Source: Blastocatellia bacterium
GTDB lineage: Bacteria > Acidobacteriota > Blastocatellia > UBA7656
NCBI GenBank assembly: GCA_963832205.1
Contig: CAWHTK010000020.1
Coordinates: 126,512 to 190,511, forward strand
Direction: 5' to 3'
DNA length: 64,000 nt
Below the pieces are notes generated by a model that ran no database searches, had not been told where the DNA came from, and saw only the letters and a list, made by a program, of their open reading frames with translations. The position numbers and the translations under genes are program-made. This document shows, piece after piece, positions 3,511 through 38,612 of the stretch. How positions within the stretch are numbered: the stretch's first letter is position 1; each line of letters begins with the position of its first letter.

Positions 3511-3579
3511 AGGCAGGCATTAAACAACAGCCGCGCCGCATCGTCAATGCCCCACATTTTCGTATTGAAAGTTGCGCTA

Positions 3580-3987
3580 TTAGATTCTGGTCACGGCCAG
3601 CCAGACGCGGTACCGGTTCGGGTCAACGCCGGAGCTTTCGCTGCGACCGGGGGTAACGCGAATCAGCCTTATTCGATAATTATCGAAATCGACCTCTTTG
3701 GGTGTGACGTGCGAGTTTAGTGTTACTGTCTGGTCGCGGCCGTCGGCGGTGACCAGTGACAATACGACTTCGGCGTTGCCGCTCCAGACGCACCTGACGC
3801 CTTCGGGGCAGCGGCTGTCTTGAGGCACGGCGGCGAAGGTGATCTTCAGCCGGGCGCGGTCGAGCGAGACTTCTTGACCGATCTTTATTTTAAACTCCCG
3901 GCCGAGCGCGGCCCGCGGTTTTGGAGCGGGCGCTTTCGCGTGCGCGACCGGAAGGATCAATAGTAAGGCAATGACCGCAAGCTTCAT
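3580..3987 (-). CDS. small secreted hypothetical protein
   Basis: Start at MKLAVIALLLILPVAHA (signal peptide), with a GAGGAG RBS upstream of the ATG at 3987. The longer ORF-track N-terminus is rejected. Confidence 0.5.
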   Translation of the reverse strand: MKLAVIALLLILPVAHAKAPAPKPRAALGREFKIKIGQEVSLDRARLKITFAAVPQDSRCPEGVRCVWSGNAEVVLSLVTADGRDQTVTLNSHVTPKEVDFDNYRIRLIRVTPGRSESSGVDPNRYRVWLAVTRI

Positions 3988-4102
3988 ACGAGTCTCCTCA
4001 ATCATGAGTTGCGCGCGGCCTGGCGAAAGTTGCCTCTTAATAAAACGGGCGGCAGACGGAAGCGCTTCCGCCCGCCGCCCGCGCTTGACATTCGATTGCC
4101 TG

Positions 4103-5964: not shown

Positions 5965-6027
5965 TAGATAGCTTTTAACAGAATACCTGATGCTCGTTCA
6001 ACCTGATTCTTCGATCTTTCGGCGGGC

Positions 6028-6069
6028 AAGATAAAGTTAAAAGAGCGGGGCAGGGACGAGCCCTGCCCG
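6028..6069 (-). terminator. rho-independent terminator downstream of the aminotransferase gene
   Basis: Hairpin gcggggcaggg/ccctgcccgt at 6046..6069, followed on the minus strand by a T-rich tract (tcttttaacttta). Confidence 0.4.
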
Positions 6070-6081
6070 TTTGATGACTCC

Positions 6082-7416
6082 CTATAGAGCCGCGAACGCA
6101 TGGTCGAGCGCCGCGGCGAGTTCATCGATGTCTGACCGGGTCGCGACGAGCGGCGGGCCGAGCCGTATGATGTTGCCGTGGAGACCGCCTTTGCCTATTA
6201 GCACGCCGCGCCGGCGGGTCTCTTCAAATACTCGAAGCACCGACTGCGGGTCGGGCTCTTTTGTCGTACGGTCCTTCACGCACTCGATTGCCTGCATCAA
6301 CCCCATGCCGCGCACGTCGCCGATGACCGCGTATTTTTCTTTCAGCTCTTCGAGCCGGGCTCTCAGATAATCGCCCACGACGCGGGCGTTGCTCGGCAGG
6401 TCGTTCTCTTCTATCACGCGGATGGTCGCGATCGCGGCGGCCGACGTCACCGGGTTCCCGCCGAAGGTCGAAAATGTCAGCGAAGGATATTTATCCGCAA
6501 TTTCCGGCGTTGCCGTCGTGCATCCGATAGGCGCGCCGTTGGCCATGCCCTTTGCGAAGGTCATCACTTCGGGCTCGACATCCCAGTGCTCTATGCCGCA
6601 CCACCGGTCGCCCGTCCGGCCCCACCCCGTCTGCACTTCATCGCAGATGAATATGCCGCCATAACGCCGCACGATCTCAGTAACGACTTTAAAGTAATCC
6701 CTGGGCGGCGTGATGAAGCCGCCGACGCCCATTATTGGCTCGGCAATAAACGCCGCGATCTGTCCCGTGGTCGAAGTTTGGATCAGTTCTTCGACGTCGC
6801 GGGCGCACTCCATCGCGCAGTTATCGGGGGTCGCGCCAAACGGGCAGCGATAACAGTAAGGCGCGTGCGCGTGGACGATGCCCGGCACGAGCGAGGGGCC
6901 GTGCTTCCAGGTCGCGTGACCGGTGGCCGTCATATTCATGACCGAGCGGCCGTGGTAGGCGTAGCGCAGCGCAATGATCTCGGTCCGGCCGGTATATATG
7001 CGGGCGAGCACCATAGCGGTCTCATCCGCCTCGGTCCCGCTGTTGGTAAAGAAGCTCTTCTTGAGGTTTCCGGGCGTGATTTGCGCGAGCTTCTCGGCAA
7101 GCTCGACCTGCGGGCGATTGATATATAGCGTAGAGGTGTGAGCGATTGCGGCCGCCTGCCTGGCCATCGCCTCTACCACTTCGGGTCGGGCATGGCCCAC
7201 GGAAGTCGTGAGCACGCCGCCGAAGCAATCGAGGTAGCGGTTGCCCTCCGCGTCCCAGACGTGCATCCCCTCGCCGCGTTCAAGCACAATCGGGTGCTCG
7301 TAATACGTGGCGACGCAGGGCCACAGGTACTCTTTCTGCTTCTCAATAATTTCAGATATGGCTGGTTCGGGTGTCGCGTTGGGTGCCGTCACTTTGTCCT
7401 CCGATAAAAAAATCAT
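6082..7416 (-). CDS. class-III (omega) aminotransferase, beta-alanine/aminobutyrate-pyruvate type
   Basis: 444 aa, PLP fold type I class-III motifs (FICDEVQTGWGRTG, TFAKG). Closest family is alanine-glyoxylate / beta-alanine-pyruvate aminotransferase. Confidence 0.85.
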   Translation of the reverse strand: MIFLSEDKVTAPNATPEPAISEIIEKQKEYLWPCVATYYEHPIVLERGEGMHVWDAEGNRYLDCFGGVLTTSVGHARPEVVEAMARQAAAIAHTSTLYINRPQVELAEKLAQITPGNLKKSFFTNSGTEADETAMVLARIYTGRTEIIALRYAYHGRSVMNMTATGHATWKHGPSLVPGIVHAHAPYCYRCPFGATPDNCAMECARDVEELIQTSTTGQIAAFIAEPIMGVGGFITPPRDYFKVVTEIVRRYGGIFICDEVQTGWGRTGDRWCGIEHWDVEPEVMTFAKGMANGAPIGCTTATPEIADKYPSLTFSTFGGNPVTSAAAIATIRVIEENDLPSNARVVGDYLRARLEELKEKYAVIGDVRGMGLMQAIECVKDRTTKEPDPQSVLRVFEETRRRGVLIGKGGLHGNIIRLGPPLVATRSDIDELAAALDHAFAAL

Positions 7417-14277: not shown

Positions 14278-14282
14278 CGATT

Positions 14283-14398
14283 CTAGATTTTGGATTTTAG
14301 ATTTTGGATTTTGGATTAGGGAACTTGGTCGGAATCAGCCCGCTGATGTTCCAGGTATCCGGCAATCCAAAATCCAAAATCTAAAATCCAAAATCTAA
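14283..14398. repeat. MITE-like element with ggattttg heptamer arms (R2)
   Basis: agattttggattttagattttggattttggatt ... aatccaaaatccaaaatctaaaatccaaaatct. The core is the reverse complement of the core of the copy at 38499..38612. Confidence 0.7.
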
Positions 14399-14404
14399 AT
14401 TGTT

Positions 14405-16421: not shown

Positions 16422-17969
16422 TTATCTACGGGCGAGTTCCCGCTTTAGCAGCTTGCCGGTCGGGCCCTTCGGAATCTCGTCGAGAAACTCGATTGACTTG
16501 GGGCATTTGAAATCGGCCAGGTGCGTTCGGCAAAACGCGATTATCTCCTGCTCGGTCGCCCGCTCGCCTTCGACGAGCACGACGAAGGCCCTGACCTCCT
16601 CGCCATAAAGCGCGTCGGCTACCCCGATGGTGGCCGCGTCCTTCACTTTCGGGTGACGATATAGCACCTCGTCGATCTCTCGCGGGTAGATGTTTTCGCC
16701 GCCGCGTATGATCATATCGTTCTTGCGGTCAACTATATAAAAGAACCCGTCCTCGTCGCGGTATCCGAGGTCGCCCGTGTGGAACCACCCCGAACGGAAT
16801 GCTTCGAGCGTGGCCCGCCTGTCCTTGTAGTAGCCCTTCATTATGTTCGGCCCGCGCAAGACGATCTCGCCGATCTCGCGCGGGCCAAGCTCGCGGTCGT
16901 CTTCATCAAAGACTTTTACCTCGTTGCCTATGGGCAGCCCGACCGACCCCGGCCGCCTGCGATCATCCGCGGGGTTGAAAGTCGAGCGGCAGGTCGATTC
17001 CGAAAGCCCGTAGCCTTCGACCACCGGACAGCCGAAGAGTCTTTCGAACCGCTCGATCACCTCAAGCGGAACCGGGGCCGAGCCGCACAGCGCGAAACGG
17101 AGGCCGCGGATGTCGAGACTTTCCGGGACGCCCGCGGGCCAGGTCTGTATGAGCAGCGAAAGCATCGTCGCGACCGAGCCGAAATAGCTCACGCCGTAAC
17201 GCGAAATCGTCTCCCAGTGGCGCGAGGCGCTGAAGCGCGGCGCAAGGACTATGCTGCCGCCGGCCCAGAGCGCGGCCATGCAGGTGGTCATCAGCGCGTT
17301 CACGTGAAAGAGCGGCATTAGCATTAACGCGCGGTCGCTTTCGCCGAGGCCGAGCCACTCGCTGATCTGCCGCGCGTTCGATAGTATGTTGCCGTGTGTG
17401 AGAAGCACGCCCTTGGGCTTCCCGGTCGTGCCCGACGTATAGATTATCACCGCCTCGTCGTCCGCGGTGACGGCCGGCCGCGGGCGCGGATCAACCGCTT
17501 TTCTCTTTATCGATGATGTCGACGAGCGGACCACCGACCAGCCACCTTTCTCGTCGATCACCACGACGTGTCGTAACCGGGTTGACCGCTCCAGCGCCTG
17601 ATCGAGGTTCGGCAACAGTTCCGGCTCGGTTATTACGACCGACGCGCCGGAGTTTGAGATGATGAATTCGACCTCGTGCGCTTTGAGCATGGCGTTGACC
17701 GGCCCGGCCCATGCGCCTATTTCGAAGCAGGCGAAATAGCAGATAAGGTACTCGATGCGATTCGTGAGCAGCAGGCTCACGCGGCCCCCCTTTTTGACGC
17801 CGAGCGAGAGCAGGAATTCGGCCGCGCGGTCGATTTCACCGGCGAATGCCCTGTAAGTTAGCGCCGACCCGTCAGACCCTGAGAAAAGGAACTCTTTATC
17901 CGAAAATCTATCTACGCGGGACGCGAGTAATTGGCCTATGGTTTCGGGCGAGCTCTCCGGCATATGCAC
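16422..17969 (-). CDS. AMP-dependent acyl-CoA synthetase / long-chain fatty-acid-CoA ligase
   Basis: IIYTSGTTGKPKGV, GYGLSES, WFHTGDLGYRDEDGFFYIVDRKNDMIIRGGENIYPREIDEVL, and C-terminal PKGPTGKLLKREL. Confidence 0.85.
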   Translation of the reverse strand: MHMPESSPETIGQLLASRVDRFSDKEFLFSGSDGSALTYRAFAGEIDRAAEFLLSLGVKKGGRVSLLLTNRIEYLICYFACFEIGAWAGPVNAMLKAHEVEFIISNSGASVVITEPELLPNLDQALERSTRLRHVVVIDEKGGWSVVRSSTSSIKRKAVDPRPRPAVTADDEAVIIYTSGTTGKPKGVLLTHGNILSNARQISEWLGLGESDRALMLMPLFHVNALMTTCMAALWAGGSIVLAPRFSASRHWETISRYGVSYFGSVATMLSLLIQTWPAGVPESLDIRGLRFALCGSAPVPLEVIERFERLFGCPVVEGYGLSESTCRSTFNPADDRRRPGSVGLPIGNEVKVFDEDDRELGPREIGEIVLRGPNIMKGYYKDRRATLEAFRSGWFHTGDLGYRDEDGFFYIVDRKNDMIIRGGENIYPREIDEVLYRHPKVKDAATIGVADALYGEEVRAFVVLVEGERATEQEIIAFCRTHLADFKCPKSIEFLDEIPKGPTGKLLKRELARR

Positions 17970-18116
17970 ATCTTAGCTAAAACCCGGTGAGAGGCAAAGT
18001 ATGAGGACTGGTGAAGGAGGCGTTATGAATACAGGCCCGGCGAGCGCCGCGTTTGACTTCGCGCCTGCCAGCGGCTAAATTTTTCGCCTGATTGTAAAGA
18101 CAACCTCGGAGGAAGA

Positions 18117-19949
18117 ATGTCGATCAAGTCGGATCGCTGGATCAAGCGGATGTGCGAAGAGCAAGGGCTCATCGAGCCTTATGAAGAGAAGCTCGTCCGC
18201 AGTATAGAAGATAGGCGAATCATAAGCGCCGGCCTTTCAAGTTACGGCTACGACTGCCGGCTCGCGCGCGACGAGTTCAAGGTCTTTTCGCCGGTTACGG
18301 GGACCGAGATAGACCCGAAGAACTTCGACCCCAACAGCCTGCTCGACGTGCCTATCAGAAATACCGCGGACGGCTCCGAGTACTGGCTGCTTCCGCCGCA
18401 CTCCTACGCGCTCGGCGTCACCATAGAGCGATTCAAGATGCCGCGCAACGTAACCGCCCTCGCCATCGGCAAGTGTGTAACTGGCGATGCGCTCATCTTA
18501 AATCCCGATACGGGCGATCTGATACAGATGCGCGATTACGTCGAGAGGCGTATAACGCGAGCCGCTTCGCTTTCGGGTAACCAGATCGCCAGCGCCCGAG
18601 TCTCCGACCACATACGTAGCGGGATCAAGCCCGTATATCGGTTGACTACTCGGACAGGGCGCAGGGTCAAGCTTACATCCAATCATCCGCTGTTAACGTT
18701 CAACGGCTGGGTTCGCCTCAAAGACCTGGTCCCCGGAGCGAGCAGAGTAGCGGTGCCGCGCTCGCTGCCCTTCTTCGGCAGTAGTGATCTACCAGATCAT
18801 GAGGCAGACATGCTCGGCTTGATGATCTCTGATGGCCAATGCAGCACGCCTGGGCATTCGCCATGTTACACGAGCGCGGACCCGACGTTGGTGGAATACT
18901 TCACGTCCGCGGTTGAGCAGTTCGGATGCTTCGTTCATCCCAAAGGCAACTTTGGATATAGAGTCGTGAACCGGCTCGGCAGAGGGGGGATTATGACAGG
19001 CAACCCCAATCGGATGACGGTCTGGCTGTCCGATATGGGGATAAACGTCGTGTCGAGAGATAAGTTCATCCCCACGCGAGTCTTAACGGCATCACGCGGA
19101 TCTGCCGCCAGGTTCTTGAGGGCACTCTTTTCCGGCGACGGAAGCGTCATGACTCAGGGCAGCCAGGTCGTGATCGAGTACTGCTCCATGTCAGAGCGCC
19201 TGGTGCGTGACGTTCAGCATATGCTTTTGCGCTTCGGCATAATCTCTTCGGTGCGCTCCAAGCAGACAAACTTTGGTACTACGGCGTGGAGGCTGTGGGT
19301 AACGGACAAAGACGCGATAACCATTTTTGCGCGCGAGATAGGTTTAATACCGGGAAGCCAGAAGCAGAAAAAACTGGAAGAAGCGCTGGACATAATTGCC
19401 GCTCATCCGAAGTCGCACACGAACATAGACAGCCTCCCTTCGGATGCGTGGGCGGTCCTGCAGGCGGCTTGCCGTAAGAATAATCGGTCGATGCAGAGCG
19501 TGGGCTTTCACCCGAACCGCAAGCAGGGCGTAAGCCGCGCCCTTGCGGCGCACGTCGGTGTCGAGCTTGAAGAGCCCTCGCTCGTCGGCATAGCTTCGTC
19601 GGACATATTGTGGGACCGCGTTGAGGCAATTGAGTACGTCGGCGAAGAAGAGGTGTACGACCTCGGCATTGCCGCAACGCACAACTTCATAGCCAATGAC
19701 ATCATTGTGCATAATTCAACTTATGCGCGCTGCGGATTGATCGCGAATACGACTCCGCTCGAAGCCGCCTGGTGCGGGCGATTAGTAGTCGAGTTGTATA
19801 ATGCCGCCAACCTGCCGGTGAGGCTTTACGCGGAGGAGGGCTTCATACAGATACTCTTCTTCGAATCGGACGAGGAGTGCAACACGAGCTATAGCGACCG
19901 CGGCGGAAAGTACCAGGACCAGCCCGGCCTCACGCTCGCGAAAGTATGA
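18117..19949 (+). CDS. dcd: dCTP deaminase interrupted in-frame by a 414-aa intein (exteins 119 + 77 aa)
   Basis: N-extein MSIKSDRWIKRMCEEQGLIEPYEE...VTALAIGK and C-extein STYARCGLIANTTPLEAAW...FIQILFFESDE together give about 196 aa of dCTP deaminase. The insertion splits the conserved GK|S-STYARCGL (GRSS-ARLGL) active-site loop. Confidence 0.85.
   Translation: MSIKSDRWIKRMCEEQGLIEPYEEKLVRSIEDRRIISAGLSSYGYDCRLARDEFKVFSPVTGTEIDPKNFDPNSLLDVPIRNTADGSEYWLLPPHSYALGVTIERFKMPRNVTALAIGKCVTGDALILNPDTGDLIQMRDYVERRITRAASLSGNQIASARVSDHIRSGIKPVYRLTTRTGRRVKLTSNHPLLTFNGWVRLKDLVPGASRVAVPRSLPFFGSSDLPDHEADMLGLMISDGQCSTPGHSPCYTSADPTLVEYFTSAVEQFGCFVHPKGNFGYRVVNRLGRGGIMTGNPNRMTVWLSDMGINVVSRDKFIPTRVLTASRGSAARFLRALFSGDGSVMTQGSQVVIEYCSMSERLVRDVQHMLLRFGIISSVRSKQTNFGTTAWRLWVTDKDAITIFAREIGLIPGSQKQKKLEEALDIIAAHPKSHTNIDSLPSDAWAVLQAACRKNNRSMQSVGFHPNRKQGVSRALAAHVGVELEEPSLVGIASSDILWDRVEAIEYVGEEEVYDLGIAATHNFIANDIIVHNSTYARCGLIANTTPLEAAWCGRLVVELYNAANLPVRLYAEEGFIQILFFESDEECNTSYSDRGGKYQDQPGLTLAKV
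18474..19715 (+). mobile_element. intein with LAGLIDADG homing-endonuclease domain inside dcd
   Basis: Begins CVTGDALILNPDTGDL (block A; Cys1 at 18474-18476). Two LAGLIDADG motifs (MLGLMISDGQCS and FLRALFSGDGSV). Ends IIVHN (19701-19715), followed by a Ser +1 residue. Confidence 0.8.
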
Positions 19950-19994: not shown

Positions 19995-20018
19995 GCTGCG
20001 ACACGCTCGCAGCTTTTT
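19995..20018 (+). terminator. candidate rho-independent terminator after dcd
   Basis: Stem gctgcgacacgctcgcagc followed by TTTTT, 46 nt after the dcd stop. Confidence 0.4.
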
Positions 20019-20177: not shown

Positions 20178-20795
20178 TTGCCTCGAATGAATGACCGAGA
20201 CGACGCGGAGAAAGCCGCCGCCCCCGAAATACTTAATGATGGCAGTCTCGTCGCCGATTGTCTCAGGGGCGATGAGGCGGCGTGGGAGACTTTGATACTG
20301 CGCTACCGTCGTCTCATATATTCGATCCCCATCAAGCTCGGTTTTTCTCCCATCGACGCGGCGGACATATTTCAAACGGTCTGCCTCAGGCTGTTCGAAC
20401 ACCTCCGCGAGCTGCGCGACGCCGAAAAAGTAAGCTCGTGGCTTATGAGCACAACCACCAGAGAGTGCTACCGGCTGCTCGCCCGCCGCCGCAGAGAAAA
20501 CCAGGTCTCGGTCTATGATGAAGAGCAGGAACGCGAAATCCTCGACCGGCTGGCCTCGGCCGAGCCGCTCGCTGACCAGCAGCGGATCAAATACGAGAAC
20601 GAGCAAATAGTCCGCGAGGGCGTAGCGCGACTTCCCGCGCGTTGCCGCGAGCTGATCGAGCTGCTCTTCTACAGCAAGGACGAGCCGAGTTATGCGGAGA
20701 TCGCGCGCCGCATGAATATTCCGCTCAATTCGCTCGGGCCGATTCGCGCCCGCTGCCTTCAGAAGCTCAAGAAATTCCTCGAAGAAAAACTTTAA
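20178..20795 (+). CDS. ECF (group IV) RNA polymerase sigma-70 factor
   Basis: Region 2 (ILRYRRLIYSIPIKLGFSPIDAADIFQTVCLRLFEHL) and region 4 HTH (EPSYAEIARRMNIPLNSLGPIRARCLQKLKKFL). 205 aa. Confidence 0.85.
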   Translation: MPRMNDRDDAEKAAAPEILNDGSLVADCLRGDEAAWETLILRYRRLIYSIPIKLGFSPIDAADIFQTVCLRLFEHLRELRDAEKVSSWLMSTTTRECYRLLARRRRENQVSVYDEEQEREILDRLASAEPLADQQRIKYENEQIVREGVARLPARCRELIELLFYSKDEPSYAEIARRMNIPLNSLGPIRARCLQKLKKFLEEKL

Positions 20796-20893
20796 CCGCC
20801 TGTACTTTTCTCGCGCCCCGCTGCTCCATTATCCGAACGGCGCGCGGAAGTAGAAGCTCGCGCCGTCACTTCTCCAATTTGAAAGGAGTCCGT

Positions 20894-21901
20894 ATGCGAA
20901 AATCCATCGCCGCACTTTTTGCGCTTGTGCTACTCCTTTCTCCCCATACGCATGTGTTAATAACCGATGCCCAGGCCGCGACTCGCGCCAAGGGCGTCAT
21001 CCGAAATGTCGATGTCGAAGCAAAGACCGTCACGCTCGTCGTGCGGCGCGACGGCACTAACCTCGTCCTTCAAACCGACGACCAGACTCGCATAACCCGC
21101 AACGGCGACCCCGCGAGGCTTTCAGACCTCCAGCAGGGCGACACTGCAGTGGCGGTCTTTGATCGCGAAACGCTTCTTGCCTCGCGCATAGACGCGAGGG
21201 GCGATGAGCGCCAGCAGCTTGCCCGCATAGAAGGCACGATCAGCGCGGTTGACACGGCCGCGCGCACGCTCACTATCGTTCCTTTGCGCGACGGCCGCCC
21301 CGTGACGCTGGGCGTCACCGACAGCACCGCCATCACGCTCGACGGCCGCCCCGCGCGGTTAGACGACCTTGCCCGCGGGTTTACCGCCGGCGCCTCCTAC
21401 GATCCGCGGAGCCTCGCGGCCGTGCGCGTCAACGCTGAATCGTTCGCCGAAGTGCGCGGCGTCGTGCGCGATGTGGGCGTCGCCAACCATACTTTGACCA
21501 TCGGCCTCGGCGGCGACCGAAGCCTTACGCTTTCCGTGCCCGACGGCACGCCCATCTCCCTCAACGGCCGGCCCGCCGATCTCGAAGACCTCAGGCGCGG
21601 GTTCCACGTCGTGGCGAGCTATGTCGAAAGCAGCCTCACGGCCGTTCGCATAGCCGCGACTTCGCTCGCCGAAGTCACAGGCAACATACGGCGCGTCGAC
21701 ACCGCGGCCGGGATTGTTGTGATCTCGCCGCTAATCGGCGGCGACGCGGTAGAGCTTCACGTCACTGAAGCGACGCGCATAAGCGTCGGCGGCGAGCCCG
21801 CAAGGCTCGAAGAGCTTCAGCCGGGCATGGCCGCGCAGGCCGTGTTTAACATCGCATCGCACGAGGCGCAGTCCATAACGGCCCGCGCGCAGAGGCGATA
21901 G
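20894..21901 (+). CDS. secreted protein made of four tandem repeats of about 45 aa (unknown domain)
   Basis: aaaggag RBS plus ATG at 20894. Signal peptide MRKSIAALFALVLLLSPHTHV. Repeats TVTLVVRRDGTNLVLQTDDQTRITRNGDPARLSDLQQGD / TLTIVPLRDGRPVTLGVTDSTAITLDGRPARLDDLARGF / TLTIGLGGDRSLTLSVPDGTPISLNGRPADLEDLRRGF / VVISPLIGGDAVELHVTEATRISVGGEPARLEELQPGM. The ORF-track N-terminus overlapping the sigma gene is rejected. Confidence 0.6.
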   Translation: MRKSIAALFALVLLLSPHTHVLITDAQAATRAKGVIRNVDVEAKTVTLVVRRDGTNLVLQTDDQTRITRNGDPARLSDLQQGDTAVAVFDRETLLASRIDARGDERQQLARIEGTISAVDTAARTLTIVPLRDGRPVTLGVTDSTAITLDGRPARLDDLARGFTAGASYDPRSLAAVRVNAESFAEVRGVVRDVGVANHTLTIGLGGDRSLTLSVPDGTPISLNGRPADLEDLRRGFHVVASYVESSLTAVRIAATSLAEVTGNIRRVDTAAGIVVISPLIGGDAVELHVTEATRISVGGEPARLEELQPGMAAQAVFNIASHEAQSITARAQRR

Positions 21902-21909
21902 AAGCCCGT

Positions 21910-22010
21910 AGCGAGCTTCGAAGGGGCGGCAGAGGGTGCAGGCGCGGCGAGGGGAGACGCGGCGGCGCACCACTACTCGGCTGTTATCTGTCGCCCCTTC
22001 GAAGCTCGCT
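21910..22010 (+). repeat. perfect 19-bp inverted repeat with a 63-nt loop directly after the repeat-protein stop (structured terminator/attenuator candidate)
   Basis: agcgagcttcgaaggggcg (21910-21928) and cgccccttcgaagctcgct (21992-22010) are exact reverse complements. The first arm starts 9 nt after the TAG stop. Confidence 0.45.
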
Positions 22011-22297
22011 TTAAATCTCTATCCCCATCCGCAAACAGGTGGGAGAATGGTGGTCTGAAAGGCTATTCACAAAAAGTCTGTGAGAAGGCCTGATGTCGGT
22101 AGCCCCGGAGGGGCGAGATGTTTATAGGAAGAGATCGATGTACATTTCGAGCTCCGTCAGGAGCGGTATGTTTACATTCCGCCCCTACGGGGCTCAGGGA
22201 TTTTCAGCACCGTGTCTTCTATAAATATTTCGTCCCTACGGGACTCTTACTCTCACATTTTTTGTGCAACGCCGGTCTGAAAAGGTGATATGAACCG

Positions 22298-25163
22298 GTG
22301 AGCAGAAAGCTGGCAGACTCCTTGATGAAGGCCCGAAGCGCCGACGCGTTCTTTCGCGAGCGGCGCGGCACGCTTTCGTGGAATATGTTTGCCTCGCTTA
22401 AGGCCGAGATGGATCGCCTCGTCCACACGGACCTAAACCGCGCCCGCCGCCTTGCCGACCGCATCGAGCGACTGGCCTTGCTCTCAAGCGACCCGATAGC
22501 CCGCGCGTTCGCCGACGCCTCGCGCGCCAGATTACTGCACCTGTTAGGCAATCACGGCGAGGCCAATATACTTTACGCGAAATCAATCGCGACGCTCATC
22601 GAGTCGCGGCTCGCCCGGCAGGCCGCCATCATTCAGAAGCAGCAGGTTAACGCGCTCACACACCTCGGCCGTTATCGCGAGGCGCTCCAGGCGGCGCGCT
22701 CTGCCCGCCGCGCGCTCGCGCCGTCCGAGCCGCTTCACCTGGCGCAGCTTGAGGCGAACGTCGGAAACGTCTATTACCTGCTGGACAGATACGAGAAGGC
22801 GCTGAGTCATTACGATCGCGCAAGAACCGGGCTTGCCGCGCACGGCGATGCGCGGTCGCGCGCGCTGCTCGACCTCAGCCGGGCAAATATCCTTGCCGAG
22901 CTAGACCGGCCCGAAGAGGCCATCGCGCTCTACGCGGAGGCGGCCCGCACGTCCGCGCGCGCCGGTCAGTCACTTATCGCGGCGCTCGCGAGTTACTACA
23001 CAGCCTATATTCATTTTCTGCGCGGCCGGTACAACACCGCGCTTCAATCCTATAATGACGCGCGCGACCGGCTCTCGGCTCTCGGCAGCGTTCATTATGT
23101 TGCCTGGTGCGACCTTGAGATCGCCGAGGTGCTCTTCGCCTTAAACTCGTTCGACGATGCGATGGAGAGCGCCGAGCAGGCGCGCGCGCGTTTTGTCGAG
23201 CTTCGGATGCCTTATGAAACGGCGAGGTCGCTGATGACTATAGCGCTCGCGGCGATGGGCCTCGGGCAATTCGAGCGGGCGCGCGATTATTTGAGCGAGG
23301 CCCGCTCGGTCTTTGCAGCCGATAAGAATAAGACTTTCGCCGCGCTCGCCGACTCTTATCTGGCGGAGCTTGCGATCAGGCGCGGCGATGCGGTAGAAGG
23401 CGCGCGGAGAGCCGAGGCGGCCCTGCGCGCGTTTCGGAGCAGAAATCTCGCGACCCGGTCCGCCTACGCGCTGATGCTGACGGCGCGCGCGGCTTACCTG
23501 TCGGGCGAGCGCGCGAAGGCCCACCGCCGGGCGCGCTCCGCGCTCAGATCAATCGAGACGCACTACGCCCCATCAGTGAACTACATGGCGGAACACCTTT
23601 TGGGAAAAGTAGAGCGCGACCGGGGGCGGCACGGTCGGGCCATCGAGCACTTCCGCCGCGCGGTCGAGACCATCGAGCAGATGCGCGGCGCGGTCACGGC
23701 CGACGACCTGAGATCCGCCTTTTTGCGCGACAAGGTTGAAGTCTATGAAGACGCCGTGAGCGCGTGCCTCGACGAAGGGGGCGCGTCGTCCATTGAAGAA
23801 GCATTCCGTCTGGTCGAATCGGCCAAATCTCGCGCGCTCGCCGACCTGCTCGCGCGTTACCTGCGCGACTCTTCCGTCCCGCGCGTGCGCGGCAAGGGCG
23901 GCCAGAAGAGGCGCGCGCAACTTCTCGACCTGATCGAGGACCTGAACTGGTACAGCTCGCACGCAAGTCTGAGCGAAGAGAAGGCGAGTCAGCGCCACGC
24001 GGCCCCGGCAACCTCGACGCGCGAATCGGAGCGCGTCGAGCGGCGCATCGCAAAACTTTTCCGGCGAATAGAATCGGAAGGGGATCGCGCGGATGATTTG
24101 CATGGGAGGCCGCCCATCAGCGAGCCCGAGCTGTGCGCTTCGCTTGGCGTCGAAGAGACGGTGGTCGAATACTTCGTAACGGGAGACGAGGTGTCGGCCT
24201 TCGTGACTTCGCGCGAAGGGACGAAGCTGGCGCGGAATATCGCCTCCAAACGCGAGGTCGAAGGTATGCTTTCCGCGCTCCGCTTCCAGCTCGAAAAATT
24301 TAACTACGGGCGCGAGTATGCGGACGAGAATTTCGAGCAGTTGAACGGCGCGGTCAATCATCACCTCGCGCTCTTATACCAGGCGATCTTTGCCGGGCCG
24401 CGAGCGATGATCAAGACCGAAAAGCTCATCGTCATACCACACGGCGCTTTGCACTACGTCCCGTTCCACGCGCTGATAAATCGCTATGGCTACCTCGTCG
24501 ATCAATTTGAGATCTCCTACGCGCCCAGCGCGACCGTGCTCGGCATGTGCCGCGAGCGATCGCGGACCTCGAACCTCAAATCTCGAATCTCAAATCTCTC
24601 GACTCGTATGGTCGCGCTTGGGGTAGGGGACCGGGCCGCGCCGAACATAAAAGAGGAGGTCCGCGCGCTCGGCAATCTCTTCCCGAACTCTTCGACGTTC
24701 ACCGGCAGCGCGGCCACGCGCGCTAATCTTATGAAGCACGCCCCGCGCGCCCGGTTTCTCCATCTCGCGTCGCACGGGTATTTTCGCCGCGATAACCCTA
24801 TGTTCTCTTTTCTCAAGCTCGCCGATTCGAGGATAGATTTTTACAGCCTTATGGATTTGAAGCTCACGGCTGAGATGGTGACGCTGTCGGCGTGTCACAC
24901 CGGGGTCAACATGGTATTTCCCGGAGACGAGCTTCACGGGCTCGTGCGTGGGTTTCTGCACGCGGGCGCGCCCTCGCTTGTGGCGAGCCTGTGGGCCGCG
25001 AGCGACATCTCGACGGCTGAGTTCATGAAAGAGATGTATGCCGGGATACGCGCGGGCTCGTCGAAGCGCGAGAGCCTGCGCGCCGCTCAGACTCGCCATC
25101 AAAGAGGAGTATGGACATCCATACTACTGGGCGCCATTTATACTCATGGGCAGCCCCGACTGA
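22298..25163 (+). CDS. TPR-repeat protein with C-terminal CHAT (caspase-like) protease domain; the 3' end is re-framed
   Basis: GTG start with aaaaggtga RBS. About 500 aa of TPR-like helices. The CHAT domain (LVIIPHGALHYVPFHAL...FLHLASHGYF...LSACHTG) has an intact His/Cys dyad. The ORF-track end (..AAQTRHQRGVWTSILLG.. to 25201) is a 1-nt frame error. The alternative frame gives the canonical CHAT terminus IKEEYGHPYYWAPFILMGSPD*, with its stop at 25161-25163. Confidence 0.8.
24568..24606. repeat. short in-frame remnant resembling the tttgaaat MITE family, inside the CHAT gene linker (R4)
   Basis: ctcgaacctcaaatctcgaatctcaaatctctcgactcg encodes SRTSNLKSRISNLSTR between the TPR and CHAT domains. 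It resembles the reverse complement of the selA element (cctcatttcaaatctcgactcctgcc). Confidence 0.3.
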
Positions 25164-25197
25164 GCCTCCGCGATAGATTATTTATGAGGTCACCTGT

Positions 25198-27195
25198 ATG
25201 AAGAGACTACTCTCCTCAATCTTGTTGATGATCCTCTTTGTCGTCGCCTGCTTCACGCCGGGGCCCGTGGCTACAGCGCGGGCCGAGTCCGCGCGCGAGT
25301 TTCACAAGGGCGAAGTCGTCGTCGAGATAAAACCGGAGGCGACGATAGAGGCGGTCAACGCGCGCCGAGGCACGACGACTATCGAGCGAATATACGGCAC
25401 GAACTTTTACCGGCTGCGCACGCCGAAGGGAAAGAAGGAGAAGAAGTGGCGTAAGCGGCTCGCGTCGGACCCGGACGTTTTGAGCGCGTCGCTCAACCCG
25501 ATCATCACTTATCCTAGCCTGTTTGCTCGCGCGACCGTGAGCTTTCCGGACGGCTACGCGAAACCGGGATTTTCGGCGGGCGACTTTCGCTCGCAGCAAG
25601 AGCTGTTTGATATGCTCGGCCTTGAAGCGATTGGCGACCGCTCGCGTGGCGCGGGCGTCGTCGTGGCCATCATCGACACGGGAGTAGACACCGGCCACCC
25701 GATGATCGCCTCGCGGCTGTGGAGTGACTCCCGCGCCGAAGCGGACCTGGAAGCAGACGGCGCAGATAACGACCACGACGGCTTGATTGACGACGGGCGC
25801 GGGTGGGACTTTGTTGATAACGACAACGACCCGTCGGAAGTGCCGGGCGACCCGCGGACGACTGTGGCCGGGCACGGCACCTTTATCGCGGGATTAATCA
25901 GCCTGCTCGCGCCGGAGTGCCGCATTCTTCCGGTGCGAGCTTTTCCGCCCGACGGAGTGACCGACGCATTCACGGTCGCCGCGGCGGTCAAGTATGCGGC
26001 AGATCACGGCGCGAATGTTATCAACCTGAGCCTCGGCTCTCCCGTCTCGCTCGACCTGCTCCACGGCGCGATTCGGGATGCGCGCGAGCGAGGCATAACG
26101 GTCGTCGCCGCGGTGGGCAACGACAACAGCGAAGGCACCGCTCAATTCCCATCAAGCCTGAGCGAGGTCATGGCGGTCGCGGCAATCGACCTTTCGGACC
26201 ACAAGGCGGCCTTCTCGAATTTCGGTCAGCACGTCGATGTGTGCGCGCCGGGCGTGCGTCTGATCAGCGCTTATCCCGGCGGCGAAAGCTTCGCCGAGTG
26301 GAGCGGAACTAGTTTTGCCGCGCCGCTTGCCGCTGCCTCGGCCGCGCTCGTCGTGTCGGCCGACCCGCGTGCTGCCGACGTGAAAGAGATAATCGAAGCG
26401 ACCGCCATCAACATTGACGATCTTAATCCGGGTCTCGCCGGTAAACTCGGCCGCGGTCGCATAGACCCGCTCGGCGCGCTACGGCTACTCAATACTGGCG
26501 AGCGGATCGCATCCGATTTCCACGCCGTGGTGGATATGCTGCGCGCGCCCGCGGTCGCCGACGCGACGGGCCGCGCGAGCGTGAACGTCGCGGGCGATAT
26601 GCAGGATTTTACTCTCGATGCCCAGAGATTGCGTCCGCACGCGAGCTACCGGCTCATAGTCGACGGCTTTGAGGTGGTGAGCGCCGCGCGGGCGACGAGC
26701 CTGGGGAGCTTGAGGCTGTCCTTTTCAAATAATCCGGGAAGGCTCTCGCTGCCCGCTCCGCTCAACCCGGTGACCGGTATAAGACAAGTTGAGCTGCGTG
26801 ATGAGCTGGGGCGATTGGTTTTGCATGGCAGCTTTTCGGAGGGGGACCAGCCTCCCGCCAGGGTGCTTGAAAGGGAAGCGCGGCTGGGCTCGACCGGAGC
26901 GCTGACCGGGGCGGGCGGACGCGCGATTGCAAAGGCCGAACCGGCGCGCGAATCGATCATGATACTGGCAGAAGGATTGCCCGCGGGCGCAAGCTTCCGC
27001 GTATCGGTTGACGGGTTGATGATAGGAATCTTTGCGGCGAGGTCGGGCTTTGTCCGCGCGCACCTTACAAGCGACGGCTCAAGCGGACTTCTCTTGCCTG
27101 GCGCGTTGCGGCCCGTAGTTAATGTAAGGCTCGTAGAGGTGCAGGACGCGCGGGGGCAGGTCGTGTTGAGGGGGGAGTTCTCGCCCGCCCGCTGA
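25198..27195 (+). CDS. secreted S8 (subtilisin-family) serine peptidase with propeptide and a duplicated C-terminal domain of about 90 aa
   Basis: Signal peptide MKRLLSSILLMILFVVACF. Catalytic triad motifs AIIDTGVDTGHP (Asp), VAGHGTFIAGLI (His), GTSFAAPLAAASAALV (Ser). Two C-terminal repeats (..ASYRLIVDGFEV..LNPVTGIRQVELRDELGRLVLHGSFSEG / ..ASFRVSVDGLMIG..LRPVVNVRLVEVQDARGQVVLRGEFSP). Confidence 0.85.
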   Translation: MKRLLSSILLMILFVVACFTPGPVATARAESAREFHKGEVVVEIKPEATIEAVNARRGTTTIERIYGTNFYRLRTPKGKKEKKWRKRLASDPDVLSASLNPIITYPSLFARATVSFPDGYAKPGFSAGDFRSQQELFDMLGLEAIGDRSRGAGVVVAIIDTGVDTGHPMIASRLWSDSRAEADLEADGADNDHDGLIDDGRGWDFVDNDNDPSEVPGDPRTTVAGHGTFIAGLISLLAPECRILPVRAFPPDGVTDAFTVAAAVKYAADHGANVINLSLGSPVSLDLLHGAIRDARERGITVVAAVGNDNSEGTAQFPSSLSEVMAVAAIDLSDHKAAFSNFGQHVDVCAPGVRLISAYPGGESFAEWSGTSFAAPLAAASAALVVSADPRAADVKEIIEATAINIDDLNPGLAGKLGRGRIDPLGALRLLNTGERIASDFHAVVDMLRAPAVADATGRASVNVAGDMQDFTLDAQRLRPHASYRLIVDGFEVVSAARATSLGSLRLSFSNNPGRLSLPAPLNPVTGIRQVELRDELGRLVLHGSFSEGDQPPARVLEREARLGSTGALTGAGGRAIAKAEPARESIMILAEGLPAGASFRVSVDGLMIGIFAARSGFVRAHLTSDGSSGLLLPGALRPVVNVRLVEVQDARGQVVLRGEFSPAR

Positions 27196-27639
27196 TCAAT
27201 CCGACGAGCGGCCGGTGCTTCCGAAACCGCCCTCGCCGCGCGTCGTTTCTTCGAGGTCCTCGACTTTGACGAGCATTGCCTCCTCGACTCTGTATAAAAC
27301 AAGTTGAGCGATGCGGTCGCCGCGACGGACGGCGAACGGCTCGACGCGATCCGTATTGAGCATTATCACGCTGATCTCGCCGCGATAGCCCGAATCGATC
27401 AAGCCGGGCGAGTTGACGCATTGAATGCCGTGACGCGCGGCTATGCCGCTTCGTATAAGCACGAGCCCCGCATATCCGCGCGGTATCGCCACGGCCACGC
27501 CGGTCGGGACGGTCGCGCGCTCGCCCGGGTCGAGCACAAGGTCTATGCGGCTCGGCAAATCGAGCCCGGCGTCCCCTTCGTGCTGATAGCGCGGTGTCGC
27601 GAGGCCCGCGTCAAGCATCTTGATCTTCAGCTCTATCAT
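27196..27639 (-). CDS. dut: dUTP diphosphatase
   Basis: GDAGLDLPS...GLVLIRSGIAARHGI...NSPGLIDSGYRGEI are the dUTPase motifs. 147 aa. Its stop is adjacent to the S8 stop (convergent). Confidence 0.9.
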   Translation of the reverse strand: MIELKIKMLDAGLATPRYQHEGDAGLDLPSRIDLVLDPGERATVPTGVAVAIPRGYAGLVLIRSGIAARHGIQCVNSPGLIDSGYRGEISVIMLNTDRVEPFAVRRGDRIAQLVLYRVEEAMLVKVEDLEETTRGEGGFGSTGRSSD

Positions 27640-28130
27640 CTTTTTCTCACGAGCAGCTTGAATGTGAAACCGTACTGGTTCCTATCGTCGGCCTCTACCC
27701 GCAAAGATTCTTTCTCTTCCCATTCGCCAAGGTCCAGCTCGGGGAAGAACGTATCCGCCTCGACCTGTGCGTCAACCTCAGTCAAATATATGCGGTCCGT
27801 GGCCGCGAGCGCCCGCGCGTAAATTTGAGCGCCGCCGATAATAAACGCTTCGCTGTCGCCGCGGCCCTCAGCGAGCTCGATAGCTGATTCGACTGAATGG
27901 GCAATAAGACAACCTTCGGGGCTGTACTCCTGATCGCGCGTGACGACGATCATATCTCTTCCGGGGAGCGGCCGGCCGATTGATTCAAACGTTTTTCTGC
28001 CGGCTATGAGGTGGTGGCCCATGGTAAGTTCTCGGAACCTTTTCATGTCGGACGAGAGCCGCCAGGGCAGGCGGTTATCTTTGCCTATCCCGCGACGCCG
28101 GTCCATCGCGACGATTATGGATACGATCAA
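27636..28130 (-). CDS. folA: dihydrofolate reductase
   Basis: [52 protein letters not shown]...[16 protein letters not shown]. The proposed TTG start overlaps the thyA stop (TTGA). The ATG at 28104 is an alternative. The ORF-track Arg-rich 130-aa N-terminus is rejected. Confidence 0.8.
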
Positions 28131-28921
28131 ACCGCGACCTCGGCTTTGATGTGCGGGTGGGATTGGTACCCCACAAGCTCGAAATCTTCGTACCGAAAAT
28201 CGAAGATCGACCTGACCTCCGGGTTTATCCTCATCCGAGGAGGCGGGAGCGGGTCGCGCGTCAGTTGCAGACGCGCCTGCTCGATGTGATTTAAATAAAG
28301 GTGCGCGTCTCCGAGCGTATGCACAAGCTCGCCCGGTTTGAGGCCGCACACCTGAGCGATCATCATCACCAGCAGCGCGTATGAAGCGATGTTGAAGGGA
28401 ACGCCAAGGAATATGTCTGCCGAGCGCTGGTACATCTGGCAGGAGAGGCGCCCCTCGGCCACGTAAAACTGAAACAGCACGTGGCACGGTTGAAGCGCCA
28501 TGCGGTCGAGTTCGCCCGCGTTCCACGCGTTGACGATCAGGCGGCGCGAATCGGGGTTGGTTTTGATCTGGTCTATGACCTGACTTATCTGGTCAACTTC
28601 GCGGCCGTCGCCCGCGCGCCACCTGCGCCACTGCGCGCCATAGACCGGGCCAAGGTCGCCGTTTTCATCCGCCCATTCGTTCCATATGCTCACCCCGCGT
28701 TCTTGCAGGTACTTGATGTTGGTGTCGCCCCTCAAGAACCAGAGCAGTTCGTGAATGATAGATTTCAGATGCAGCTTCTTTGTCGTCAGCGCGGGAAATC
28801 CTTCGCCGAGATCGAAGCGCATCTGGTAGCCAAAGACCGATAGCGTGCCTGTCCCCGTTCGGTCGTTTTTCTTAACGCCGTTTTCAAGAACGTGCCTCAT
28901 CAAATCGAGGTATTGCCTCAT
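28127..28921 (-). CDS. thyA: thymidylate synthase
   Basis: [31 protein letters not shown]...PCH(V)LFQFYV... 264 aa, canonical ThyA. Confidence 0.9.
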
Positions 28922-29037: not shown

Positions 29038-30835
29038 TTAGAATCTGATCGCCTGATAGCGGGCGCTTCGCTCGCCGGTCGTCTGGTTGAAGATAGTGAT
29101 TGAGACTTCCTCGCCCTTCGGGAACGCCTTCTTTATAGGCTTCTTGCCGGGGCTGACAATAAGTCGCGTCATCGTGCCGTTGGACAGCTCGTAAGTGACG
29201 TCGTACTCGGTCCCGGCGAGCGGCTTGCCGTTGACTTCGACTATCGAAGATCCGTTAAGAAACCCGTAGCCTTCGATGGTCACTTTCTTCTTGCTGATCT
29301 GGGCGCGGACCACCGTCGGGGCGGCGCGGCGGGACCATCTGGTTGGTGACCGCGTTGTAGGCGTTGGCGCGGCCCGAGCTTAATACCATGTTGAGCGCCG
29401 CCGGGGTCGGCTCGGCCGTTGAAATGATCCGCTGTTTTACAGCCGCGGGCGAAAGCGACCCGTCGAGCGAATAGACGAGCACTGCTATGCCGGAGACGAA
29501 GGGCGCGGCCATCGAGGTTCCCTGCCGCTGGCCATAATCGCCCGGAACCGTACTCAATATCTCCACGCCGGGGGCCGCCACGCTGACCCTCGTGTGGCCG
29601 TAATTGGAGAAGTCCGCGAGGCTATCGGCCGCGTTCAGCGCGGCGACCGAGATGACGTTCGACAACTCGCTGCTCCACGACCCTGGAAAGCTTGGCGTCT
29701 CGTCGACGAACTCGCCTTCGTTGCCGGCCGAGGCCACAAACAGGATGCCGGCTTCGCCCGCCCTGACTATGGCTTCGCGCAGGGTGATCGAGTTGCCGGG
29801 CCCGCCCCAACTCGCGTTTATAACGTGAAGGTTTACCCCGCGGTTCTTCAGGGCTATCGCGTAATCAATGGCCTTTATCGCATTGGCGGTCGAGCCGCTG
29901 CCGTTGCTCCCTGTAAGAAACTTCAGCGATACCATCTTTACGTTCCACGCCACTCCGACCACGCCCCTGTTGTTGTTGCCCGCCGCGCCTATGATGCCGG
30001 CGACGTGCGTGGCGTGGGTATCGAAGGTCGGGTTTACGAATACGTCGTTATTGTTGTCGGCGAAGTTCCAGCCGTTGATGTCGTCAACATACCCGTTGCC
30101 GTCGTCATCGTTATTGTTGCCCGCGATCTCTCCGGGGTTGACCCAGATGTTCGGCGCGAGGTCCGGGTGCGAAACATCGATTCCCGTGTCTATGATACCA
30201 ACGACTATGTCGTCCGAGCCGGTGGTTATGTCCCATGCGCGTGTCGCGTCAACGTCGGGCCTTGAATAATCGCTGCTACAGCCGTTGCAGCCTGTGTTAC
30301 GAAGCCCCCACATCTGACTGAAGTGCTCGTCATTCGGCGTGGTGTCGCTTGTATAGAAAGAGTAGTTCGGCTCGGCGTACTCGACGCGCGGATCAAGCTG
30401 GGCGCGCCGCACGGCCTCTTCAACCGTCATCTTGCCGCCGAGGCGCACGAGTTGCGCGCCGCGCGGATGCTCGGTAAGCGACTCGACCCCCTGGCCCCCG
30501 GCGCGCAGTATCTGTTCGGGTATCTGCGCCAGGTCAGGGATGTCGGCCACATCCTCTCTCAGCTTTATGATTACTTCGCCGTCAACGTACGGCCGTCGGT
30601 TTTTTTGAGATTCTTGAGAATAGGCGCCCCGTTGCGGAATAAAGACAACGGCGCTCAGGATTATAGATAAACAGGCGGCCAGAAACTTTTTCATCCGATT
30701 ACCTCGATTGTGCGACTGTGGCAAAAGTTTCGAGCCCAAGTCGCGGCGACACTCTAGAATATAGATTAGCCTTACAGTTAATGAGAGACGCTTTAGATTA
30801 TAGTTCCAGGCCGCCCGCGTAATCAATGATCGCAA
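29038..30835 (-). CDS. secreted S8 serine peptidase with propeptide and a C-terminal domain in a second frame (frame disruption near 29300-29320)
   Basis: ORF 29255..30835 has VGIIDTGIDVSHPDL, HATHVAGIIGAAGNN, GTSMAAPFVSGIAVLV. After NAYNAVTNQMV it turns into junk (PPRRPDGG..). ORF 29038..29313 (extended upstream to ..AAPTVVRAQISKKKVTIEGYGF..) supplies a C-terminal beta domain. The break sits in a ccgccgcgccgcccc tract. Confidence 0.8.
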
Positions 30836-38498: not shown

Positions 38499-38612
38499 TT
38501 GGATTTTGGATTTCGGATTTTAGATTTTGGATTGCCGGACACCTGGAAAGTCAGCGGGCTGAATTCAGCCCTGTTCCCGGAATCCAAAATCCAAAATCTA
38601 AAATCCAAAATG
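38499..38612. repeat. MITE-like element with ggattttg heptamer arms (R5), filling the whole intergenic gap
   Basis: ttggattttggatttcggattttagattttggatt gccggacacctggaaagtcagcgggctgaattcagccctgttcccgg aatccaaaatccaaaatctaaaatccaaaat. Lies between the Nramp start codon (38498) and the DUF1330 stop (38615). Confidence 0.7.

Follow-up and report, generated by a model that had tools for sequence, protein, structure and literature searches.

Inteins have been described before in dCTP deaminase (Dcd): the one carried by cyanophage CL131 excises in E. coli, and the paper that reports this cites prior findings of Dcd inteins in a proteobacterium and in a Chloroflexi (PMC6293099). It is the sole Dcd intein with a splicing experiment in the literature that we searched. 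We have analysed another such element, encoded in a 64,000-nucleotide (nt) stretch of DNA from a Blastocatellia bacterium (GenBank assembly GCA_963832205.1, contig CAWHTK010000020.1, positions 126,512 to 190,511 of the forward strand; this whole stretch is called the window below, and positions are counted from its first letter). Judged from its sequence, this element is a genuine class-1 intein with a LAGLIDADG homing endonuclease, lodged within the catalytic loop of the enzyme. It has in common with the intein of gp069 of the phage (vB_AphaS-CL131 in full) the Dcd host, the catalytic loop and the general plan, a nuclease nested within a self-splicing intein. The CL131 intein differs in its site, GKSTYAR↓C (the arrow marks an intein junction here and below), which lies five residues downstream, in having a Cys at +1, an HNH nuclease and a Lys-Asn end, and in residing in a phage gene; its site and nuclease were read from the translated CL131 gene. 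Since insertion site and nuclease type differ, the CL131 intein was rejected as an identical allele.

The closest characterised relatives of the window intein are the DnaB inteins, represented by the structures 4o1r (E=1.5e-25) and 1mi8 (2.5e-22) of the Npu and Ssp DnaB mini-inteins; the NCBIfam model of intein-containing DnaB, PRK07773, gives 257 bits on the intein part, over all 414 amino acids (aa). Class-1 chemistry (Cys1, TxxH, HN↓S) and the position of the LAGLIDADG insert are shared, but the inteins of DnaB and of P-loop ATPases lie in other host proteins and folds and are only 30-39% identical; Dcd itself stands outside the P-loop NTPases, and the fold to which its GKST loop belongs is dUTPase-like. 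With PI-SceI, PI-PfuI, PI-TkoII and TliVMA the likeness is one of predicted fold, that is HINT together with a LAGLIDADG core of two-fold pseudo-symmetry (Foldseek 1e-20 to 1e-10), whereas identity falls to 11-17% and these archaeal or yeast elements occupy other genes and have unrelated target specificity. The public Dcd alleles with a LAGLIDADG intein at the GK↓S junction are alike in gene, junction (GK↓C...HN↓STYAR), size, splicing blocks and both LAGLIDADG motifs. The window copy is set apart from them by residing in a Blastocatellia-type Dcd whose closest relatives are mostly without intein.

The gene is a single long open reading frame (ORF) with no stop within 1,833 nt, and it encodes a 610-aa precursor. 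Its insert, precursor aa 120-533, begins in the translation with CVTGDAL and ends with DIIVHN (IIVHN), after which STYARCG follows. The parts of the gene and its immediate signals are these:

18053..18081, + strand: sigma-70-like promoter candidate TTGACT-17-TAAATT upstream of dcd (consensus scan, weak)
18108..18112, + strand: Shine-Dalgarno sequence GGAGG, 4 nt ahead of the dcd ATG (direct reading of the sequence)
18117..19949, + strand: dcd precursor ORF (N-extein, intein and C-extein, stop included), 610 aa, 67.7 kDa
18117..18473, + strand: N-extein, Dcd aa 1-119, ending ...TALAIGK (Pfam DCD on aa 3-119; colinear with 4dhk)
18474..19715, + strand: intein, class 1 by prediction (Cys1 ... His-Asn), 414 aa, 45.5 kDa (Pfam and NCBIfam matches, DnaB mini-intein structures, structure model)
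18474..18500, + strand: splicing block A, CVTGDALIL, with first nucleophile Cys120 (Cys in 21/21 aligned homologues; TIGR01445 on aa 120-194)
18672..18698, + strand: splicing block B, LTSNHPLLT, TxxH motif with T187 and H190 (both invariant)
18777..19601, + strand: homing-endonuclease insert, aa ~221-495, two LAGLIDADG half-domains and a helical region (modelled secondary structure, Foldseek, Pfam; boundaries approximate)
18810..18842, + strand: LAGLIDADG motif 1, MLGLMISDGQC, aa 232-242, acidic residue D239 (Asp or Glu in homologues; G240 invariant)
19110..19145, + strand: LAGLIDADG motif 2, RFLRALFSGDGS, aa 332-343, acidic residue D341 (invariant residues in 21/21 sequences)
19650..19715, + strand: splicing blocks F and G (EVYDLGIAATHNFIAN, DIIVHN) with D515, H532 and N533 (all three invariant; TIGR01443 on aa 512-534)
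19716..19949, + strand: C-extein, 77 aa plus stop, from STYARCGL (Ser534 is the +1 residue, codon TCA)
19995..20013, + strand: terminator-like hairpin then TTTTT, 46 nt past the dcd stop (consensus scan)

The consensus scan saw 2 promoter-like sites against 1.3 expected, which leaves the promoter candidate weak; the position of the terminator-like hairpin suggests that dcd is monocistronic. Two antisense ORFs within the intein (19279..19677 and 19344..19712, both on the - strand) found no support and were treated as chance ORFs, in DNA of ~57-61% G+C.

Profile searches recognise the splicing domain at both ends of the insert. Pfam Intein_splicing matches the ORF at E=1.1e-24, and the NCBIfam models intein_Nterm (TIGR01445) and intein_Cterm (TIGR01443) give 34.7 bits (cutoff 24.5) and 28.9 bits (cutoff 15.6), respectively. 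Residue conservation was read from an alignment of 21 divergent homologues, and C120, T187, H190, D515, H532, N533, S534 and, in the nuclease, D341 are invariant in 21/21. An AlphaFold2 (AF2) model built on the homologue alignment has a mean predicted local distance difference test score (pLDDT) of 79.6, and of ~90 over the intein; its HINT part superposes with the DnaB mini-inteins at a target-normalised TM-score of 0.83-0.89. Taken together, Cys1, TxxH, HN↓S, an extein that is colinear once the insert is removed and a predicted HINT fold are the features by which a class-1 intein is known.

On the host side, the extein joined without the insert is 196 aa long and scores 137.4 bits against TIGR02274, the dCTP_deam model (cutoff 92.8); the unspliced 610-aa ORF is also above cutoff, at 116.2 bits, and Pfam DCD matches it at E=1.5e-19. 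The joined extein aligns without gap across the junction with the Dcd structure of Burkholderia thailandensis, 4dhk (E=1.3e-62), and is likewise colinear with 196-aa Dcd proteins from Blastocatellia that have no intein. The intein enters at GK↓STYAR, between Lys119 and Ser534. When aligned with E. coli Dcd (b2065), S534, R538 (the Arg of STYAR) and E559 (the Glu of VVELYN), in precursor numbering, fall on Ser111, Arg115 and Glu138, which are the catalytic residues of the E. coli enzyme. The intein would therefore, by this alignment, divide the active-site loop immediately before the equivalent of the catalytic Ser, and Ser534 appears to have two roles, as the +1 splicing nucleophile and as the counterpart of E. 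coli Ser111. In terms of the dUTPase fold, we take the GKST loop of Dcd to be its phosphate-binding motif, (P/G)(R/K)SS. The structures most similar to the extein, 4dhk and 3km3, are of monofunctional type, and the presence of a separate dut gene in the window would fit a monofunctional (deaminase-only) Dcd. The sequence-only reading of this DNA had given a 610-aa dcd ORF with a 414-aa insert at aa 120-533 (nt 18474-19715), starting with Cys (CVTGDAL), bearing two LAGLIDADG motifs and ending in HN before a Ser; the coordinates are exact and all these elements are present in the translation. It had also proposed that splicing blocks A/B/F/G be looked for and that the exteins be joined and aligned, and the match to Intein_splicing and those above cutoff to TIGR01445 and TIGR01443 together with the gapless, colinear extein bear it out. 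Its placing of an intein in the conserved GK-S(S/T)xAR catalytic or phosphate loop is supported by the splicing blocks, by the predicted fold, by the colinearity of the extein and by the existence of homologous alleles.

In the endonuclease, Pfam LAGLIDADG_3 matches aa 331-409 (E=1.4e-20) and covers the second half-domain only. In motif 1, MLGLMIS-D239-G, homologues carry Asp or Glu at position 239, and G240 is invariant; in motif 2, FLRALFSG-D341-G, the residues F333, L334, A336, L337, F338, G340, D341 and G342 are invariant in 21/21. Between aa 227 and 408 the pattern of the AF2 model fits alpha-beta-beta-alpha-beta-beta-alpha half-domains, and the best PDB match of the model found by Foldseek is TliVMA (7qss, 1.3e-20), followed by PI-PfuI (1dq3), PI-TkoII (2cw7) and PI-SceI (1vde).

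To place the allele among known sequences, the whole ORF was searched against a clustered protein database, where 809 proteins matched at E<=1e-10 and 120 matches were listed. The listed matches combine Pfam DCD, LAGLIDADG and Intein_splicing, and nearly all span the full query. A simple pattern recovered GK↓C in 118/120 of them and HN↓STYAR in 119/120, and two of the exceptions to the pattern read CK↓C at the identical site. There are at least 120 full-length homologues with an intein at the GK↓S junction; these homologous Dcd inteins have 408-418 aa and a whole-length identity of 38-65%. The best match to the window ORF is 71-72% identical overall (88% in the extein, 63-65% in the intein), so that no protein at least 90% identical to it was found in this database of 5.8 billion clusters. 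Many of the listed matches are named 'deoxycytidine triphosphate deaminase/intein/homing endonuclease' by IMG. Other names, given by NCBI, are 'LAGLIDADG family homing endonuclease' (P0019) and 'hypothetical protein' (P0042 and P0085).

A scan of GTDB species-representative genomes gave 221 stretches encoding a relative, none with an intein more than 49% identical to that of the window; the genome from which the window derives is seemingly absent from both this collection and the protein database. The best 80 of these 221 stretches were examined. They come from Methylomirabilota/Rokubacteria, Chloroflexota, Planctomycetota, Omnitrophota, Verrucomicrobiota (Udaeobacter), Acidobacteriota, Gemmatimonadota, Latescibacterota, Eisenbacteria, Campylobacterota and many Beta- and Gammaproteobacteria, and an intact intein of 408-417 aa sits at the GK↓S junction in 78 of the 80 loci. 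Carriers of the GK↓S Dcd intein belong to more than 10 phyla; one is cultured, the gammaproteobacterium Allochromatium palmeri DSM 15591 (NZ_WNKT01000014.1), and others are metagenome-assembled genomes (MAGs) of Steroidobacteraceae and Burkholderiales. The allele is also found on a viral contig of 69.8 kb from IMG/VR (L087, IMGVR_UViG_3300009194_000010), in a dcd gene of 634 aa at nt 3599-5503, whose intein at the GK↓S site is 36% identical to that of the window and has an altered second LAGLIDADG motif, AALFTCDSY. Phages are thus possible carriers for a spread of the Dcd intein across phyla; among the phages of INPHARED no GK↓S Dcd intein was found. The sequence-only reading had supposed that this was a bacterial Dcd intein allele not documented before, perhaps at a new insertion site. 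That part of it fell in the face of at least 120 protein clusters, 221 species representatives, the annotation by IMG and the mentions in PMC6293099: new in sequence, the window intein belongs to an allele already widespread, and annotated, in public data.

In some bacterial dcd genes both inteins, that at GK↓S and that at the CL131 site, occur together. No more than five extein residues then separate the two (GK↓intein↓STYAR↓intein↓CG...), an unusually short spacing, the second intein being at the CL131 site; examples are three loci in Burkholderiales/Gammaproteobacteria MAGs (L034, L045 and L063) and two proteins, P0118 and P0245. In a Thermoflexales MAG (L006), an ORF of 1,327 aa at nt 2668-6648 has apparently three inteins, the third near ...TPFEPE↓WEG.

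To ask whether the element moves, it was compared with alleles that lack it. The best 120 matches of the window extein carry no intein; they are Dcd proteins with 80-90% identity and, in nearly every case, 196 aa, the named sources being Blastocatellia or Acidobacteriota; the closest, at 85-90% identity, are Blastocatellia proteins. These matches mark the host, a soil bacterium, as an acidobacterium of Blastocatellia type, and the intein is therefore a minority state among close relatives. An intein-free allele in related genomes, which the sequence-only reading had suggested looking for, was found in Blastocatellia at three loci (L083-85; GCA_035293105.1 DATDOV010000006.1 and two ENA assemblies), and in it the empty site reads ...ATCGGCAAG↓AGCACCTACGCG..., and the flanks of a Blastocatellia intein-free allele were also read as ...GCAATCGGCAAG↓AGCACCTACGCGCGC..., against ...GCCATCGGCAAG↓TCAACTTATGCGCGC... 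for the flanks of the window gene joined without the intein. Between the empty L083-85 site and these joined flanks 47 of 60 bases are identical. Gene order around dcd is shared neither with this closest intein-free locus nor with the closest intein-bearing one (L086), and the comparison of occupied and empty sites is thereby confined to the interior of the gene. Identities of intein and extein can also be discordant: Pyrinomonadaceae-type exteins are 63-67% identical to that of the window and carry inteins only 38-42% identical, whereas more distant exteins, at 49-55%, carry inteins at 47-52%.

A further indication comes from the codon of the +1 Ser, which was compared between 82 intein-bearing alleles and 80 intein-free alleles, for which a metagenome scan and a single genome locus served as source. 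This codon is TCN in 81/82 of the former (the sole exception is L045) and AGY in 42/80 of the latter (Fisher p=2e-15, kinship ignored). Among the close intein-free relatives of the window gene, AGY is used in 13 of 16 distinct alleles. When nearest neighbours with an extein identity of at least 80% are paired, TCN with intein and AGY without is seen 28 times and the opposite once; the reverse pairing gives 40 against 0. Two control serines, S41 and SY.D, show a small codon difference between the sets. As TCN and AGY both encode Ser, the bias must act on DNA, and there would be two possible causes: either the endonuclease requires T/C at +1/+2, so that AGY alleles are refractory, or homing co-converts the flank. 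The footprint is suggestive of homing at the DNA level and of naturally resistant alleles. Together with the patchy distribution at a fixed site, it also offers indirect support for site-specific cleavage of the intein-free allele.

We consider that a mobile class-1 intein, which splits Dcd between Lys119 and the catalytic-loop Ser within a 67.7-kDa precursor, splices and homes, and we would give this reading a probability of about 0.82. Conserved residues and established intein chemistry indicate how splicing would proceed: an N-S acyl shift at Cys120, transesterification to the hydroxyl of Ser534 (+1), cyclisation of Asn533 with the help of His532 and, finally, an O-N shift that would restore the GK-ST peptide bond. 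Two products would result: Dcd of 22.2 kDa (196 aa), its Ser/Arg/Glu active site intact, and a free intein of 45.5 kDa. Mature Dcd would supply dUTP to the Dut-ThyA-FolA enzymes, the genes of which are 7-9 kb away. The free intein, or the precursor, would act as a monomeric two-motif LAGLIDADG endonuclease cutting the empty dcd site ...GGCAAG↓TCNAC..., and repair of the cut intein-free allele from an intein-bearing copy would convert it. For splicing there is a precedent in the other Dcd intein that splices in E. coli (PMC6293099); for homing, the reading rests on the occurrence in more than 10 phyla and on a viral contig, on intein-free closest relatives, on discordant identities and on the codon footprint.

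Several points weigh against this reading. In the literature searched we found no experimental work, on splicing or on the endonuclease, for the GK↓S LAGLIDADG Dcd allele. The F-block His is not kept across the intein homologues of the 21-sequence alignment; absence of this residue is frequent among inteins. The codon association was computed ignoring phylogeny, which is why we call the footprint suggestive, and one control serine, S42, shows a significant codon difference, with the intein-free set fixed, a pattern indicating greater diversity in the intein-bearing set. Across 115 alleles the identities of intein and extein are correlated (Spearman 0.68), so inheritance would be largely vertical within lineages. 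The G+C content at third codon positions (GC3) is 0.68 in the intein, only a little less than the 0.70-0.77 of the host genes, and the codon usage of the intein is host-like; recent acquisition was rejected, as neither GC, GC3 nor codon usage gave a clear signal of it, and the intein is rather an old resident. Finally, endonuclease activity could have been lost through changes outside both motifs.

The strongest alternative is that splicing is intact and the endonuclease dead, the intein being a fixed and vertically inherited passenger that no longer homes. Besides the amelioration of composition and codon usage to the host and the correlated identities, it can invoke the fact that the nearest relatives of the intein (P0001 and P0002) also own the nearest intein-bearing exteins. 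Yet the acidic and surrounding LAGLIDADG residues are kept across phyla and the endonuclease is of full size in 78/80 loci, neither of which relaxed selection would lead one to expect, the majority of close relatives have no intein, and there is the codon footprint at the junction; we hold this alternative to be unlikely. Much less probable still is a conditional switch, in which redox or another signal would gate splicing and hence Dcd activity and the supply of dUTP/dTTP. Conditional splicing has been proposed for some DnaB and RadA inteins. Such a role would suit the insertion exactly at the catalytic Ser, from which it may be deduced that the precursor is probably inactive, the presence of several conserved Cys residues around the junction (C120, C242 and, at +6, that of STYARC) and the clustering of inteins in proteins of nucleotide metabolism and replication (PMC4760082). 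However, nothing in this evidence is specific to the Dcd intein, most close relatives manage without one, and patchy distribution with a retained nuclease fits a selfish element better. That the insert is an assembly chimera, or the gene a dead one without functional Dcd, is scarcely credible when the insert is exactly in frame, has canonical junction residues and is stop-free over 1,833 nt, when the identical architecture recurs in hundreds of independent assemblies and when all Dcd catalytic residues are kept.

The relatives of the intein in other proteins may tell how it came to Dcd. An exhaustive search with the intein alone returned 11,117 representatives at E<=1e-3, and junctions were read in 72 full-length matches: 13 of the 72 have the Dcd-type junction GK↓S, 16 the type of the DnaB H4 motif (LRESG↓SIEQD and close variants), and in the remaining 43, from other non-Dcd hosts, the junction has Lys on its -1 side and Ser or Thr on its +1 side. 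Lys before and Ser/Thr after the junction is thus the rule for 43/59 of the non-Dcd relatives, and the 43 sites are either the Walker A GK↓S/T of DnaB, AAA_5/MoxR, ClpB-like and Rad51-like proteins or GFNK↓SH of DnaE. By Pfam, the hosts among 10 non-Dcd proteins are DnaB (H4 and P-loop sites), AAA_5/MoxR ATPases, one ClpB-like AAA_2 protein, one Rad51-like protein and the DNA polymerase III alpha subunit. The expectation, raised by the PRK07773 and PDB matches, that the nearest relatives would be DnaB H4-site inteins only was rejected, since the search gave a mix dominated by GK↓S/T sites. Inteins are known to cluster in P-loops, site b of DnaB being the P-loop and sites a and c motif H4 (PMC4760082). 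The local context of the Dcd GK↓ST loop resembles the P-loop GK↓S/T, and this would plausibly explain the capture. Going further, and with more doubt than belief, one might suppose that the endonuclease reads the bases just 3′ of the insertion, TCN being invadable and AGY homing-resistant, and that the family hops among proteins with a GK↓S/T loop (DnaB, AAA+, Rad51-like, DnaE, Dcd). If this were true, the family would have captured in Dcd a host that is no P-loop NTPase, on account of a loop that mimics the GK↓S/T phosphate-loop context.

The surroundings of dcd in the window comprise the following genes:

16422..17969, - strand: AMP-dependent ligase, upstream of dcd
20178..20795, + strand: extracytoplasmic function (ECF)-type sigma factor
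20642..21901, + strand: 419-aa ORF without Pfam match, overlapping the sigma factor gene
22298..25201, + strand: TPR-CHAT protein, 967 aa
25198..27195, + strand: subtilase with a fervidolysin-like prodomain
27196..27639, - strand: dut (Pfam dUTPase, 6.6e-33)
27636..28526, - strand: folA, dihydrofolate reductase (DHFR) domain within the ORF (Pfam DHFR_1, 2.2e-57)
28127..28921, - strand: thyA (Pfam Thymidylat_synt, 4.8e-130)
29255..30835, - strand: second such subtilase

The sequence-only reading had placed dcd in a dTTP-synthesis neighbourhood with dut-folA-thyA. The genes are indeed there, 7.2-9 kb downstream, but the association is loose: they are on the other strand, with unrelated genes between, and share no operon with dcd. 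Among themselves thyA, folA and dut (27196..28921, - strand) are tightly packed. The longest folA ORF runs ~134 codons upstream of the DHFR domain, with an overlap into thyA, and folA therefore probably starts near 28124-28130; the 4-nt overlap of the dut start with the folA end suggests translational coupling. In the intein-free relative mentioned above (L083-L085), dcd is 2.4 kb from dut and thyX (Thy1), the window genome having thyA and folA instead; the thymidylate synthase system thus differs between close relatives. The same-strand run of sigma factor, ORF, TPR-CHAT protein and subtilase (20178-27195, + strand) possibly forms a protease or CHAT module regulated by the sigma factor. No tRNA or Rfam family was found in the window. 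Elsewhere in it, a palindromic intergenic element of ~115-125 nt is present in two copies of opposite orientation (14279-14399 and 38498-38611), made of 4-5 tandem GATTTT(G/A), a ~45-nt core with TCAGCCCGCTGA and 4-5 heptamers AATC(C/T)AA, which are reverse-complementary to the left arm. As a dimer, the heptamer is seen 15 times in the window against 0.21 expected, 15/15 inside the two elements. The element looks like a hairpin of the kind of miniature inverted-repeat transposable elements (MITE) or repetitive extragenic palindromic (REP) sequences, or like a bidirectional terminator.

For annotation, the gene is best named intein-containing dCTP deaminase. An intein specialist would find nothing surprising in these Dcd intein findings, and two points of use may be mentioned: the endonuclease, with an uncharacterised specificity of ~20 bp, could serve as a rare cutter, and the Lys -1 / Ser +1 splicing context is of some interest for protein engineering. 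With regard to the family, the window contributes an acidobacterial addition to a widespread, biochemically uncharacterised allele in the catalytic Ser loop of an enzyme that feeds dTTP synthesis, and the split between TCN and AGY offers a cheap and direct test of whether synonymous variation can shield a conserved gene from a homing element.

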